From: Chthonomonadaceae bacterium
Lineage (GTDB): Bacteria > Armatimonadota > Chthonomonadetes > Chthonomonadales > Chthonomonadaceae
Length of the DNA stretch: 20,630 nt
Assembly (NCBI GenBank): GCA_035650735.1
Contig: DASRGZ010000166.1
Coordinates: forward strand, 62,001-82,630
Direction of reading: 5' to 3'
Shown: positions 1 to 4,864 of the stretch, one piece after another
Layout of the letters: every line of letters starts with the position of its first letter
Numbering within the stretch: the first letter of the stretch is position 1
Program-made: the position numbers and the translations under genes
The notes under the pieces: model-generated
What the model saw: the letters and a program-made list of their open reading frames with translations, nothing else
Databases searched by the model: none
Told to the model about the DNA's origin: nothing

Positions 1-3000
1 GAGGCGGTTCTCCAGCGCACCGCGCCCCCGCAGGACCTCCTTCCCTACGTCTTTACCCTCGAAGCCGAGCGCCTGGTTGACCTGGACGAAGTGGTGACAC
101 GCCTGGTAGAGATGGGCTATGAGCCGGCCAGCACCGTCACCCGGCCCGGCGAGTTCAGCCGGCGCGGGGGCATTCTGGACGTGTTCCCCAGCACGGCGCA
201 AGCCCCGGTGCGCATCGAGCTCTTCGGCGACGAGGTCGAGAGCATCCGTCCTTTCGACGTGACCACCCAGCGCAGCACCGGCAGGCAGGCCCGCGTCGAG
301 ATAGCCCCGGCCCGCGAGATCCGCCTGACGCCCGCGCGCATCGCGCCGGCCCTGGTCGAGATCAAGGCCGCCTTCGAAGCGCGCAAGGCCGCCTTCGCCA
401 AAGAGGGCACCCGCGAGGCCCGCCAAGCCCTGGAGCGGCTGGCCGACCGCATCAATGCCGATCTAGCTCAGCTGGAGCAAGGCGCCTATTTCGACGGCCT
501 GGAGCAGTACTTCCCCTACCTCGTTCCCGAGCCCATCTGCGCGCTCAATTACCTGCGGCCCGAGGGCGTGGTCGTCCTGGATGAGCCCAACCAGATCCAA
601 GACCACTGGGAGCGCCTCACCGCCGACATCCAATCGGCGCGCGAGCGCCGCTGGGAGCGCGGCGAAGCCCTGGACGTCGAGGTCCATACCTGCGGCTATG
701 ACTGGCTGCTCAGGCAGTTGGAAACGCGCCCGACGCTGCTCCTGTCGCTGCTGGGCCGCGCGCTGGAAGGGCTGACGGTCCGGCAGCGCCTCAGCGTCAA
801 CTCCGCGCCCATGGAGTCGTACCGGGGCCGGTTAAACGCCCTGGCCGACGAGATCGGCGTCTGGCTCGCTAACGACTGCCGCGTGCTGATCGTCTCCGAC
901 CAGCCCTATCGCGTGCGCGAGATCTGCGCCGAGATGAAGCTGCCGGTGCAGCCCAAGGAAGCGCACATCGGGAACGCGCCGGGCCTGTTCGTCGCGCAGG
1001 GCCGCCTGCGCGCCGGCTTTAAGATCGGCGACATTCGCCTCTACCTGATCACCGACGCGGAGCTCTTCGGCAGCGCGCGCCCGGTCGTCAGCCGGCGGCG
1101 GGTGGCCGGCGGCGTGGCGATCTCGTCCGTGCTGGACCTGCGCGAGAACGATTACGTCGTCCACATCCATCACGGCATCGGCATCTATCGCGGGCTGGTC
1201 AAGCGCAAGACCGACGAGACCCTGCGCGATTACCTGCTGATCGAGTACCAGGGCGGCGACCGGCTCTACGTGCCCGCCGACCAGATCGACCGCGTGCAGC
1301 GCTATATCGGCGCCGAAGGCTCCCCACCCCAGATCAACAAGATCGGCGGCAACGAGTGGCAGCGCACCACGCGGCGCGTGCGGGAGCAGGCCCGCGAGAT
1401 GGCGGGAGAGCTTATCCACATCTATGCGGCGCGGCAGGCGGCGGAGCGCCCCTCCTACGGACAGGACACGACCTGGCAGATCGAGATGGAGGAGGCGTTT
1501 CCCTACGAGGAGACCCCCGATCAGCTGCGGGCCATCCGCGACGTCAAGGCCGATCTAGAATCCGACAAGCCCATGGATCGGTTGATCTGCGGCGACGTGG
1601 GCTTCGGCAAGACGGAGGTGGCCCTGCGCGCCGCCTTCAAGGTGGTCACGGCGGGCAAACAGGTGGCCATCCTCTGCCCGACCACGGTGCTCGCCGCGCA
1701 GCACCACTCCACCTTCAGCGAGCGGCTGGCCGCATACCCCATCAACATCGAGCTCCTCAGCCGCTTCCGCTCGCGCCAGGAGCAGGCGCAGACGGTCAAG
1801 GGCCTCAAAGAGGGTACGGTGGATATCGTCGTGGCGACCCACCGCCTGCTGAGCAAGGACGTGCAGTTCAAGAACCTGGGCCTGGTGATCGTGGACGAGG
1901 AGCAGCGCTTCGGCGTGGCGCACAAGGAGCGGCTCAAAAAGCTGCGCGCCTCGGTGGACGTGCTGACGCTGACGGCCACGCCCATCCCGCGCACGCTCTC
2001 AATGGCGCTCTCCGGCCTGCGCGACATGAGCGTCATCGAGGACCCGCCGGAGGGCCGCGCGCCCGTCATTACCTACGTCCGCGAGTACGACGACGACCTG
2101 ATCCGCGACGCCATCCTGCGCGAGCTGGAGCGCGACGGCCAGATCTATTTCGTCCACAATAAGGTCGAGAGCATCTATCACGTCGCCCAACACCTCAAGC
2201 GGCTGGTCCCGGACGTGCGCCTGGAGGTCGGGCACGGCCAGATGTCGGAAGAGGAGTTGGAGCGCGTGATGTATGCTTTCTATCATCACGAGTTCGATCT
2301 ACTGGTCTGCACCACGATCATCGAAAATGGCCTGGACATCCCCAACGTCAATACGATCCTGGTGGATAACGCCGACCACATGGGCCTGGCCCAGTTGTAC
2401 CAGTTGCGCGGACGCGTGGGCCGCTCCAACCGGCAAGCCTATGCCTACCTGCTCTATCGGCGGCACAAGCAGTTGAGCGAGGTCGCCGAGCAGCGGCTGG
2501 CGGCCATTAAAGAGTTCTCCGCGCTGGGCAGCGGCTACAAGGTGGCGATGCGCGACCTGGAGATACGCGGCGCGGGCAACCTGCTGGGCGCGGAGCAGCA
2601 TGGGGCGATGATCAGCGTCGGCTTCGACCTCTATTGTCAGCTGCTGGCCCAGGCGGTGCAGGAGCTCAAGGGTGAGGAGGTCACGGAGGACATCTTGCCG
2701 TCGGTGGACCTGCCCATCACCGCCCATATCCCCTCGGACTACATTCCGGGGGAAGCAGAGCGCATCTACTTCTATAAGCGCATGAGCGCCGTGCGCGAGG
2801 AGGCCGATATCGTCAACCTCCAGGCCGAGCTCGAAGACCGCTTTGGCGACCCGCCCCGCCCGGTCTGGGACGCGCTGGCGGTGCTGCGCCTGCGCCTGCG
2901 CTGCAAGGAGATCGGGATTTCCAGCATCAAAAGCGAACAGGCCAACGGTCGGCCCAGCGTCGCCATCAAATTCGCGCCGCACGTGCGCCTGACGCCCGAC

Positions 3001-3240
3001 GCCATCAAGCTGCTGACCTTCGCCTTCAAAGGCCACCGCTTCACCGCCGACGGTGTGATCGTGCCGCTGACCGGGCCGAAAGTGATGGCGCAGGTGGAGG
3101 AGATGGTCAAGGTGCTGGAGCAGGCGCTGGCAGAGGGCAAGAACGGCAAGGGGGCCAGGCAGGAGCCGGAGGGAGGCAATGGCCGCCGGGGAGCCCAAGG
3201 GCCGCGGCCTATCGAATCGGCGGGCCAACACCGCCGCTAA
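1..3240 (+). CDS. mfd: Transcription-repair coupling factor Mfd (5' end lies upstream of the window)
   Basis: Frame is open from base 1 (EAVLQRTAPP...). UvrB-homology segment (GEFSRRGGILDVF), RID/CarD-like segment (DYVVHIHHGIGIY), SF2 helicase motifs (CGDVGFGKT, VDEEQRFG, TATPIPRT, QLRGRVGR), TRG motif (RDLEIRGAGNLLG) and C-terminal TRCF domain. Confidence 0.98.
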   Translation, partial: EAVLQRTAPPQDLLPYVFTLEAERLVDLDEVVTRLVEMGYEPASTVTRPGEFSRRGGILDVFPSTAQAPVRIELFGDEVESIRPFDVTTQRSTGRQARVEIAPAREIRLTPARIAPALVEIKAAFEARKAAFAKEGTREARQALERLADRINADLAQLEQGAYFDGLEQYFPYLVPEPICALNYLRPEGVVVLDEPNQIQDHWERLTADIQSARERRWERGEALDVEVHTCGYDWLLRQLETRPTLLLSLLGRALEGLTVRQRLSVNSAPMESYRGRLNALADEIGVWLANDCRVLIVSDQPYRVREICAEMKLPVQPKEAHIGNAPGLFVAQGRLRAGFKIGDIRLYLITDAELFGSARPVVSRRRVAGGVAISSVLDLRENDYVVHIHHGIGIYRGLVKRKTDETLRDYLLIEYQGGDRLYVPADQIDRVQRYIGAEGSPPQINKIGGNEWQRTTRRVREQAREMAGELIHIYAARQAAERPSYGQDTTWQIEMEEAFPYEETPDQLRAIRDVKADLESDKPMDRLICGDVGFGKTEVALRAAFKVVTAGKQVAILCPTTVLAAQHHSTFSERLAAYPINIELLSRFRSRQEQAQTVKGLKEGTVDIVVATHRLLSKDVQFKNLGLVIVDEEQRFGVAHKERLKKLRASVDVLTLTATPIPRTLSMALSGLRDMSVIEDPPEGRAPVITYVREYDDDLIRDAILRELERDGQIYFVHNKVESIYHVAQHLKRLVPDVRLEVGHGQMSEEELERVMYAFYHHEFDLLVCTTIIENGLDIPNVNTILVDNADHMGLAQLYQLRGRVGRSNRQAYAYLLYRRHKQLSEVAEQRLAAIKEFSALGSGYKVAMRDLEIRGAGNLLGAEQHGAMISVGFDLYCQLLAQAVQELKGEEVTEDILPSVDLPITAHIPSDYIPGEAERIYFYKRMSAVREEADIVNLQAELEDRFGDPPRPVWDALAVLRLRLRCKEIGISSIKSEQANGRPSVAIKFAPHVRLTPDAIKLLTFAFKGHRFTADGVIVPLTGPKVMAQVEEMVKVLEQALAEGKNGKGARQEPEGGNGRRGAQGPRPIESAGQHRR

Positions 3241-3283
3241 AACAACAAGCGCCGCCGGTGCGTTACTCCGACGACGCTTGCTG
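3239..3283 (-). terminator. Intrinsic terminator-like hairpin of the candidate sRNA; may also act on mfd from the other side
   Basis: Minus strand CAGCAAGCGTCGTCGG-9 nt loop-CCGGCGGCGCTTGTTG-TTTT. It pairs fully with three G-U pairs on the minus strand, which are A-C mismatches on the plus strand. Confidence 0.7.
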
Positions 3284-3371
3284 GATGTCCCATCAGTGTG
3301 CCTGGGAACAAGTCTTCTGCCTGAAGCCAACAGGCAGAAAGTTAAGAAAGGGAATACCCTATGCTGCACAC
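3239..3371 (-). ncRNA. Candidate ~130-nt antisense/antitoxin sRNA
   Basis: Own sigma70-type promoter (3404-3376). The 5' end (3369-3345) is complementary to the RBS/start of the peptide gene (3633-3607). Internal hairpins at 3339-3315 and 3309-3287, and a terminal 16-bp hairpin (3283-3243) followed by TTTT. Confidence 0.7.
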
Positions 3372-3375
3372 TAGA

Positions 3376-3404
3376 AGTTTAGCATAGAAAGCTAGACTTG
3401 TCAA
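3376..3404 (-). promoter_or_regulatory. sigma70-type promoter for the candidate sRNA
   Basis: TTGACA (3404-3399), 17-nt spacer, TGn extended -10 plus TAAACT (3381-3376). Predicted start at about 3369-3371. Confidence 0.8.
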
Positions 3405-3458
3405 TGGATTGTTGGCAAGTCATGCCAGGAGCTAGAGCGCGCACCGTAGCGCCCTGGG

Positions 3459-3492
3459 GCGGCTGCCCTGGCGTTACCGCCAGAACAGCCGC
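3459..3492 (-). other. 15-bp stem with GUAA tetraloop immediately 3' of the small peptide gene
   Basis: Minus strand GCGGCTGTTCTGGCG-GTAA-CGCCAGGGCAGCCGC. Fully paired (two U-G) only on the minus strand; GNRA loop. Confidence 0.7.
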
Positions 3493-3498
3493 ACGGCG

Positions 3499-3615
3499 TT
3501 AACGCTTACGCCGCTTGTTCCGTTTGTCCCGCAGGTAGTCGAGCAGTCTTGAACCGAAGTTCAGCACTGCCGCTGCCAGCGCCAGAACAAGCTCCCAAGT
3601 GCGCTCGTGCAGCAT
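3499..3615 (-). CDS. 38-aa small membrane peptide, type I toxin-like (MLHERTWELVLALAAAVLNFGSRLLDYLRDKRNKRRKR)
   Basis: ATG at 3615, strong SD AAAGGAG (3631-3625) 9 nt upstream, TAA at 3501-3499. Hydrophobic core followed by a strongly basic tail. Below the ORF-track size cutoff. Confidence 0.75.
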   Translation of the reverse strand: MLHERTWELVLALAAAVLNFGSRLLDYLRDKRNKRRKR

Positions 3616-3676
3616 ACAGGTTTTCTCCTTTCTACCCCGGCAAATTGACCTGGCTAGGGTCGCGACCGAGGTATAA

Positions 3677-3707
3677 ATAGTAAGACATACGTGCGCTCTG
3701 TTGTCAA
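3677..3707 (-). promoter_or_regulatory. Possible promoter of the small peptide gene
   Basis: TTGACA (3707-3702) with TACTAT (3682-3677); the 19-nt spacer is long, hence the modest confidence. Confidence 0.4.
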
Positions 3708-3726
3708 CTCAGAAGATAGACAGAGG

Positions 3727-3783
3727 TATAATAGTTTGGCGCTTGATCGCTCTGCGCAGGCCGCGATCCGGCCTGCGAGAGCG
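3727..3783 (+). promoter_or_regulatory. Probable pdhA -10 box and 5' leader hairpin
   Basis: TATAAT at 3727-3732 with no good -35 at 17 nt. Hairpin CGCTCT-G-CGCAGGCCG-CGATC-CGGCCTGCG-AGAGCG at 3748-3783. SD GAGGAGG at 3837-3843. Confidence 0.45.
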
Positions 3784-3853
3784 TTAGCTATATGCAGAGG
3801 CGGCAACACCTGCTAGCCGACTGCGCCCCCTGAGAAGAGGAGGAAAAAACGGG

Positions 3854-4864
3854 ATGGCGAAAGCCGCAACAAAAGGCGCCCCCAGCGGTCTGGACCGCGA
3901 GACGTCTTTGGAATTGTTTCGTATCATGCTTCTCATTCGCCGCTTTGAGGAGCCTTGCGATAGGTATTATCGTGCGGGCAAGATGGGCGGCTACGTCCAT
4001 TACTATATCGGCCAGGAGGCGATTGCCGCCGGCATCGTTCCGCTGCTGAGGCCGGGCGATTATATGCTCTCCCACTACCGCGATCACGGCCACGCGCTGG
4101 CCATCGGCACCGAGCCGCGCCGCATCATGGCGGAACTGTTCGGGCGGGCTACCGGATGCGCGCACGGCAAGGGCGGCTCCATGCACCTTTACGATGTCGA
4201 GCATGGCTTTCTGGGCGGTTACGGCATCGTCGGCGGCAGCGTCCCGCTTTCGGTCGGCGCCGCCTTCGCGCTCAAGTACCGCAACCAGCCCAATGTCTGC
4301 GCGACTTTCTTCGGCGATGGCGCCATGCAGCAGGGCGCGGTCCACGAGGCGATGAACATGGCCGGGCTCTATAAAGTGCCCTGCCTGTTCATTCTGGAAA
4401 ATAACCGCTACGCCATGGGAACCTCGGTGGAGCGCCACTCCTCCCAGACCGATTTCGTTAAGCGCGTCACCAACGCCTACAATATCGCGGGCGAGCGCGT
4501 GGACGGCATGGATGTGCTGGCCGTGCGCGCTGCCGCCGAGCGTATCCTGGATCAGATGCGCGAGACAGGCGAGCCCTACTTCCTGGAGGCGATGTGCTAT
4601 CGCTACGTCGGGCACGGCTACGCCGATAACCCCCAGCAGCAGAAGTTCTACCGCACCGAGGAAGAGATCGAGCGGTACCGGCAGCGCGATCCCATCGCGA
4701 CCTACCGCCAGCAGCTATTGGAGTCGGGCGTGGCGACGGAAGAGGAACTTGAGGCGATGGATGAGGAGATCAAGGCTATTGTCACCGACGCCATTGAGTT
4801 CGCCGACAACAGTCCCTTCCCCTCGCCCGATAGCCTCTATGAGGATGTCTATACGGATATTTAA
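3854..4864 (+). CDS. pdhA: Pyruvate dehydrogenase E1 alpha subunit
   Basis: TPP-binding GDGA...ENN motif, YIGQEA, HYRDHGH, GKGGSMH; followed by E1 beta and E2. Confidence 0.9.
   Translation: MAKAATKGAPSGLDRETSLELFRIMLLIRRFEEPCDRYYRAGKMGGYVHYYIGQEAIAAGIVPLLRPGDYMLSHYRDHGHALAIGTEPRRIMAELFGRATGCAHGKGGSMHLYDVEHGFLGGYGIVGGSVPLSVGAAFALKYRNQPNVCATFFGDGAMQQGAVHEAMNMAGLYKVPCLFILENNRYAMGTSVERHSSQTDFVKRVTNAYNIAGERVDGMDVLAVRAAAERILDQMRETGEPYFLEAMCYRYVGHGYADNPQQQKFYRTEEEIERYRQRDPIATYRQQLLESGVATEEELEAMDEEIKAIVTDAIEFADNSPFPSPDSLYEDVYTDI

Follow-up and report, generated by a model that had tools for sequence, protein, structure and literature searches.

Does a small RNA encoded just behind a short gene silence that gene by pairing with its start region? 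The question is raised by the 613-nt gap between mfd (plus strand, ending at position 3240) and pdhA (plus strand, 3854-4864, pyruvate dehydrogenase E1 alpha) in a 20,630-nt stretch of DNA from a Chthonomonadaceae bacterium of the phylum Armatimonadota. This whole stretch, called the window below, lies on contig C166 of the host genome G000 (6.5 Mb, 224 contigs). Both on the minus strand, the gap carries an open reading frame (ORF) for a small protein and, downstream of it, the gene of a predicted small RNA. The 5′ end of this RNA is complementary to the Shine-Dalgarno sequence (SD) and AUG of the ORF, and a match at the same place, between sequences unlike those of the window, is found in a sister species. 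On balance, we think it probable that a dedicated neighbouring RNA shuts off translation of the small, helical, basic-tailed protein, in the manner of a type I toxin-antitoxin pair.

Predicted pairing between the RNA and the start of the small-protein gene

The elements that carry the argument are the following:

3499-3615, minus strand: ORF of 38 amino acids, MLHERTWELVLALAAAVLNFGSRLLDYLRDKRNKRRKR, predicted to form a single long helix with a basic tail
3607-3638, minus strand: target site on the mRNA (nucleotides -23 to +9), spanning the SD (3633-3625) and the AUG (3615-3613)
3376-3404, minus strand: small-RNA promoter, TTGACA-17-TGcTAAACT, a 10/12 match plus TG
3239-3369, minus strand: predicted small RNA of about 131 nt, with a predicted start site and a fold z-score of -5.2
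3339-3369, minus strand: anti-start region of the RNA, weakly self-paired, with nucleotide 1 as the first paired base
3340-3314, minus strand: hairpin 1 of the RNA fold, 10 bp
3310-3286, minus strand: hairpin 2 of the RNA, absent in the sister species
3283-3243, minus strand: long, GC-rich terminator stem of the RNA, followed by UUUU and abutting the mfd stop codon

The ORF has the coordinates and sequence given by the first-pass annotation, and the SD placed ahead of it is there as well (AGAAAGGAG at 3633-3625, minus strand, 9 nt 5′ of the AUG). The same is true of the promoter that had been read downstream on the same strand (TTGACA-17-TAAACT with TG ahead of the -10, at 3404-3376), which is the sole sigma-70-like match on both strands of 3000-4100, where shuffled sequences give a mean of 0.3. 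The start of the RNA at 3369 is a prediction from this promoter, and the terminator at 3283-3243 is an interpretation of the folds; the U-rich run of this hairpin is present on the minus strand only and therefore would stop minus-strand transcripts. Neither the window nor five homologous loci contain a match to any Rfam family at or above its gathering score, and the sub-threshold matches in 2900-4200 (ctRNA_pGA1 with 18.2 bits against 45, and others) are at chance level. The RNA stretch contains no conserved ORF; a 356-amino-acid open frame that runs from 3369 antisense through mfd was taken as an artefact of GC-richness.

A repeat finder shows the complementarity as a perfect 10/10 inverted repeat (3360-3369 versus 3607-3616) with an adjoining 16-nt arm at 75% (3345-3360 versus 3618-3633). 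RNAduplex places nucleotides 1-30 of the RNA on mRNA positions -23 to +9 with 26 pairs (24 Watson-Crick, 2 G-U) and an energy of -35.5 kcal/mol, in agreement with the earlier proposal of a 10-bp perfect seed over the AUG and about 24 pairs covering the SD. When the RNA 5′ end is dinucleotide-shuffled 2000 times, this energy is never matched (mean -19.0, best -31.1, z-score -5.6), and the 5′ end is the top-pairing one of 558 windows within 700 nt on either side, both strands included. At the scale of the genome, and with the opposite strand of the RNA gene set aside, the adjacent start region ranks first among 11,258 windows having a 7-nt seed. This ranking uses plain duplex energies. Duplex energies of full-length RNAs were discarded as meaningless, as they ignore intramolecular structure and are high for all long GC-rich RNAs. 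The start region of pdhA was also considered as a target of the RNA and was rejected, its pairing being at background (-18.4 kcal/mol in the window, -27.1 in the sister species).

The state of the target site can be judged from the predicted fold of the mRNA, whose further elements are:

3677-3707, minus strand: putative promoter of the small-protein mRNA, made up of TTGACA (3707-3702) and, at 3687-3677, the weak -10-like TGTCTTACTAT
3634-3672, minus strand: stem-loop in the 5′ untranslated region (UTR), which stops just 5′ of the SD in the minimum-free-energy (MFE) and centroid folds of 3672-3450
3459-3492, minus strand: hairpin right after the ORF stop codon, an inverted repeat with no U-tract in the window

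When the mRNA is folded alone (3672-3450), the SD and the AUG are essentially unpaired; the start site is therefore predicted to be accessible to ribosomes and to the small RNA. The putative promoter is a weak match that the consensus promoter scan did not report.

A matching pair in a sister species and other arrangements elsewhere

The genome G001 comes from the same genus, its PdhA is 86% identical to that of the window, and its gene order is the same, with mfd, the RNA and the ORF on the opposite strand, and pdhA. The G001 mRNA has an analogous 5′ stem (CCUCGGU...ACCGAGG), and the homologue of the post-ORF hairpin is followed by UUUUAUUUU. Directly behind, at the equivalent position, is the RNA promoter TTGACA-18-TATAAT (12/12), the sole promoter match in that stretch. 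With a near-consensus promoter (perfect in G001) located behind a terminator hairpin, the RNA probably has its own transcription, separate from that of the mRNA. The tandem, non-overlapping layout with imperfect pairing that had been described for the window thus recurs in G001. The two RNAs align over hairpin 1, over an unpaired AAGACUUG that lies 3′ of hairpin 1 and is invariant between the species, and over the terminator, and the two-species consensus structure holds compensatory pairs, one in hairpin 1 and three in the terminator.

The 5′ parts of the two RNAs are unlike, and so are the sequences that they face. The window has the SD AGAAAGGAG where G001 has UAAGGGGGUG, the spacing between SD and AUG is also unequal, and codons 2-6 read LHERT in the window ORF and TNTRI in that of G001. 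On its own mRNA, the G001 RNA covers positions -16 to +26 through 35 pairs (32 Watson-Crick) at -46.3 kcal/mol; again, 0/2000 shuffles match the energy (z-score -6.0) and the RNA pairs best among the 558 windows that lie up to 700 nt away on either side, both strands counted. In both species pairing begins with the first nucleotide of the RNA, set at 7 nt past the -10 hexamer, as the first-pass annotation had noted for the window, where it saw the complementarity begin at the predicted start site. When the partners are exchanged, the window RNA on the G001 start region yields -18.4 kcal/mol, which equals the shuffle background. A match kept while both partners changed in two lineages is what selection on the pairing predicts, as judged from the sequences of two species.

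Outside this pair of genomes the picture is different. The conserved 3′ module of the RNA is present only in G000 and G001 among 42 genomes of the family, and duplex scans over 700 nt on either side found no comparable anti-start sequence near the ORF in the other peptide-bearing genera g12, g17 and g23. The expectation that homologues carry a co-varying downstream sequence directed against the ribosome-binding site (RBS) holds for G001, with its 35 pairs between unlike sequences; in all, the same-strand RNA was found with the peptide in two of six genomes. Two further near-matches to the 3′ module in G000 proved to be members of an unrelated repeat family.

Other sequence blocks lie near the ORF in these genera:

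L016, 1404-1433 and 1696-1722, plus strand: g12 block and terminator-like hairpin on the strand opposite the ORF, shared by both g12 genomes
L014, about 1690-1710 and 1381-1355, minus strand: the same g12 block and terminator-like hairpin, shared by both genomes
L015, about 1230-1270, and equivalent positions in L022 and L023, ORF strand: g17 block GAACACGACATTATAGCATGAAGTGTCGGCGCAATGCAC, which reads TGCTATAAT on the opposite strand and is also part of a hairpin

The opposite-strand block of the two g12 genomes is promoter-like (TCGCA, 18-19 nt, TGCTATAAT; 10/12 plus TG in G012) and lies just behind the terminator of the ORF, while the terminator-like hairpin on the same opposite strand lies just past the peptide promoter. 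Judged by sequence, block and hairpin would delimit either a full cis-antisense RNA or a distal pdhA leader, and we take them as a lead rather than a result. In the g17 lineage, the block GAACACGACATTATAGCATGAAGTGTCGGCGCAATGCAC is found about 170 nt 3′ of the ORF and is identical in three diverged loci. A different arrangement is seen in G023 (L017:1360-1500, minus strand), where three tandem copies of a 26-nt unit, CGCTACGGGCGCGGCGTCCGCGTTGA, come behind the region of the peptide stop codon; the first copy overlaps the last codons and a strong terminator comes after the copies.

The small-protein family and its chromosomal site

A profile of the peptide detects it in 6 of the 42 family genomes, distributed over genera g1, g12, g17 and g23. 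In a phylum-wide sample it occurs in 5/401 genomes, all of them Chthonomonadaceae, and among 1.84 billion cluster representatives only five small homologues (clusters) were retrieved; a sixth match, an 11-residue stretch in a protein of 2,998 amino acids, was disregarded. One of the homologues, P0004, is a third one resembling those of this genus; encoded on a single contig of 2,510 nt, it is called as 61 amino acids, the last 38 of which align provided that a Leu codon acts as the start. The pattern of the metagenome scan excluded the Ile of P0004 and P0005, so that both fall outside that scan. Two loci, L020 and L024, one each from the scans of genome contigs and of metagenomes, were false positives inside a long ORF and were dropped. 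The homologues bear no database name other than "hypothetical protein", and Pfam, NCBIfam and PADLOC gave nothing relevant for the peptide, which fits the earlier suggestion of an undescribed family.

The peptide is under constraint. A comparison of 37 codons of G017 with those of two metagenome variants shows 3 synonymous and 0 non-synonymous changes, the values also found against L022, and identity declines from 97% in the coding sequence to 92% in the 5′ UTR and 85% downstream. The AlphaFold2 model consists of one helix (residues 2-37, predicted local distance difference test score 83), and the net charge of six homologues is +4 to +6. All six peptide loci have a strong SD and a promoter about 90 nt before the AUG, that of the window being weak; at matching distance, the promoters score 10/12 in G030, G012 and G017 and 11/12 in G023. 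On this comparative sequence evidence, the 38-amino-acid ORF is genuine and conserved as a gene, and its family lacks annotation. Tiny as it is, this family, with its strong purifying selection and its fixed place by pdhA, is of interest even if the peptide is no toxin.

The place of the gene is constant: it is divergent from pdhA in 6/6 genomes, and the two AUGs are separated by about 370 nt in G017 and by about 230 nt at the five other loci. pdhA itself is present in 40/42 family genomes. Synteny was checked at 26 of 30 pdhA loci; L044, L046, L047 and L056, further members of genera already covered, were omitted. In 11 genomes besides G000 and G001 the C-terminal end of mfd lies less than 900 nt from pdhA, with a gap of about 170-410 nt, and the family-wide profile search finds the peptide absent from all 11. 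Three of these 11 genomes (G015, G007 and G019) have a PdhA that is 77-81% identical to that of the window, versus 57-61% in the peptide-bearing g12, g17 and g23. Such a patchy presence at a fixed site implies that the gene is dispensable, and that it was either lost several times or gained by recombination.

The 631-nt stretch at the locus is single-copy in the G000 genome, which rules out a mobile element whose ends would be the inverted repeats. On the pdhA side, an apparent leader of about 115 nt (3733-3853, plus strand) lies behind TATAAT at 3727-3732; Rfam has no match for it, and it is conserved in G001, where 3459-3860 as a whole shows about 70% identity. Around the palindrome TTGTCAA (3701-3707), the promoters of pdhA and of the peptide are arranged back to back. 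On the mfd side, the terminator hairpin of the small RNA (3238-3283) starts right at the mfd stop codon, and because this hairpin has no plus-strand U-run, mfd transcripts may run antisense into the RNA and peptide genes. Elsewhere in G000, a very abundant intergenic repeat with the core AACCCTGCCGCTGYGGGG reaches 158 copies (for example at L027:1470-1530 and L028:1330-1530). The core comes with GC-rich hairpin modules of variable make-up, of which some read CTGCCTG...CAGGCAGAAGA and are similar to hairpin 1 of the RNA; the family has the look of repetitive extragenic palindromes or miniature inverted-repeat transposable elements.

Proposed mechanism, rival explanations and known systems

From the two genes, their pairing, its excess over chance and its co-variation, all of them established in silico, we infer that both genes are transcribed and that the RNA represses its neighbour. 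The first gene would specify, from an mRNA with a 5′ stem-loop and an open, strong RBS, a protein of 38 residues that is predicted to form a single extended helix, moderately hydrophobic in the middle and ending in a strongly basic tail. The second, about 130 nt downstream on the same strand, would give the non-coding RNA of about 131 nt from its own near-consensus promoter to its own terminator. Produced from this strong promoter, the RNA would occupy mRNA positions -23 to +9, SD and start codon included, with its loosely structured first 30 nt; ribosome entry and initiation would thus be blocked, and the duplex may additionally expose the mRNA to degradation.

Several observations weigh against this proposal. 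As to the RNA, the genome-wide margin is small, since unrelated GC-rich sites reach -34.6, -34.4, -34.4 and -34.1 kcal/mol compared with -35.5 at the start region; by energy alone a pairing of this strength is expected about once in the 13-Mb search space, and it is the position of the site that carries the weight. With the G000 genome as background, the G001 duplex would rank only 7th of 16,042 windows. The reverse exchange of partners, G001 RNA on window mRNA, still gives -34.3 kcal/mol, because the first 8 nt of the G001 RNA match conserved W-E-L codons. The co-variation comes from two species, the same-strand RNA from 2/6 peptide-bearing genomes, and the consensus terminator scan of 3000-4100 reported no terminator where the folds suggest one. 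As to the toxin, the peptide is of borderline hydrophobicity, the best 19-residue Kyte-Doolittle mean being 1.26-1.80 and above 1.6 in one of six homologues. Its best-conserved stretch has the consensus LNFGSRLLDYLREKR, and its identity of 53-68% is near that of PdhA (57-61%), so that both evolve about equally slowly. There is one copy of the gene, always at the same chromosomal site, no homologue was found in viral contigs, and searches of Pfam and NCBIfam with four homologues at E-values up to 10 returned no Fst, Ldr, TisB, Hok, Ibs or other type I family. Toxicity of the peptide is a conjecture that we rate as somewhat less likely than not. Rather unlikely, in our opinion, is the broader scheme of a new type I family of Armatimonadota in which the toxin would be anchored by pdhA and the antitoxin swapped between lineages, tandem and acting in trans here, convergent and cis-antisense in g12.

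The complementarity could also be used within a single molecule. The small-protein mRNA would then read through to the terminator at 3243-3283, its 3′ part would fold on the SD and AUG as a cis lock, and the internal promoter would be secondary or inactive. Cis action on a read-through mRNA is made possible by the lack of a U-tract behind the post-ORF hairpin of the window, a further point against a purely separate RNA, and in both the MFE and the centroid fold of a 3672-3239 transcript the start region forms a long-range helix with its complement (z-score -9.3). In G001, however, the hairpin is followed by the U-tract UUUUAUUUU with the perfect 12/12 promoter directly behind, both of which speak for a separate RNA in that species; in both species, moreover, the first complementary base coincides exactly with the start site predicted for the internal promoter. 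We hold the cis lock alone to be improbable. Cis and trans action are mutually compatible and may both operate in the window.

A separate RNA might, on the other hand, be a real regulator of other targets, its match to the neighbouring gene being fortuitous because CU-rich stretches all pair with an SD. Further genome sites lie within 1 kcal/mol, six background windows exceed the G001 duplex, and the conserved unpaired AAGACUUG could serve as a second seed. This explanation nevertheless needs an equal chance match to the adjacent start in two species, with unlike sequences and each time from nucleotide 1, whereas the chance per pre-specified window is roughly 1 in 100,000 as estimated from the genome-wide scan, and the other start region at hand, that of pdhA, pairs at background. 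It is decidedly improbable. Even less credit is due to the notion that 3239-3369 is no regulatory RNA at all and merely a structured spacer, either a terminator between convergent units or the relic of a hairpin repeat, with an inactive promoter-like site. A stem CTGCCTG/CAGGCAG followed by AGAAGA is indeed also a module of the G000 repeat family; the stretch, however, is single-copy and lacks the core motif of the repeat, and G001 retains promoter, hairpin 1 and terminator at the equivalent place with compensatory changes. We consider a mere spacer very improbable, and return to the RNA that silences its neighbour in comparing the locus with known systems.

In systems of the hok/sok type, a long-range 5′-3′ fold-back keeps the toxin mRNA inert. 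The window is similar in that a 3′ segment complementary to the start can lock the full-length transcript in the predicted fold; it differs in that the post-ORF hairpin would have to be read through, against which the U-tract of G001 argues, and no overlapping antisense RNA of the sok type is seen in this genus. With the Fst/Ldr peptides (PF13955) the small protein shares similar size and a single helix, and Fst is the nearest named cluster in a feature search of the ESM Atlas, at a score (0.79) below what the search tool itself asks of a lead of any weight. The type I likeness put forward by the first-pass annotation is partly supported: in silico, a non-coding RNA with its own promoter and complementarity over SD and AUG are found in both species, while the peptide belongs to no known toxin family and is of borderline hydrophobicity, and the RNA comes from the same strand.

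Type I pairs with a neighbouring, non-overlapping RNA include shoB/ohsC and zorO/orzO. The same layout is described for tisB/istR-1 and dinQ/agrB in PMC12390103, according to which type I antitoxins are specified by the strand opposite the toxin gene, and whose abstract names only Proteobacteria, Firmicutes and Tenericutes as the established hosts. By that description, our locus resembles the tisB/istR-1 and dinQ/agrB type in its small helical protein, strong RBS, adjacent RNA with its own promoter, limited and imperfect complementarity to the 5′ part of the mRNA, and narrow, patchy distribution. It differs from the type I pairs described there in that the RNA is downstream on the same strand and non-overlapping, and from the tisB/istR-1 and dinQ/agrB type in that the RNA lies directly over SD and AUG, in a new phylum and with no known toxin family. 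A tandem silencer RNA behind its target gene is outside the usual definition of a type I antitoxin, and finders restricted to the opposite strand, one of which is presented in PMC12390103, would miss such a layout. In our literature searches, neither small RNAs nor type I toxin systems of Armatimonadota turned up in any paper; if the proposal is true, this is the first concrete pair of RNA regulator and target in the phylum. The two natural variants, in which both partners changed yet still match, amount to a ready compensatory-mutation design.

Closest in layout are OppZ and CarZ of Vibrio cholerae, which PMC7398697 describes as autoregulatory small RNAs cut by RNase E from the 3′ ends of operon mRNAs. 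In those cases as, by prediction, in ours, an RNA encoded downstream of the gene on its own strand base-pairs with the mRNA from that locus and prevents it from being translated. On the same account, the amounts of OppZ and CarZ are coupled to their mRNAs through processing and their targets are transporter or enzyme operons, whereas the RNA of the present locus has a separate predicted promoter in both species and its target encodes a protein of 38 amino acids.

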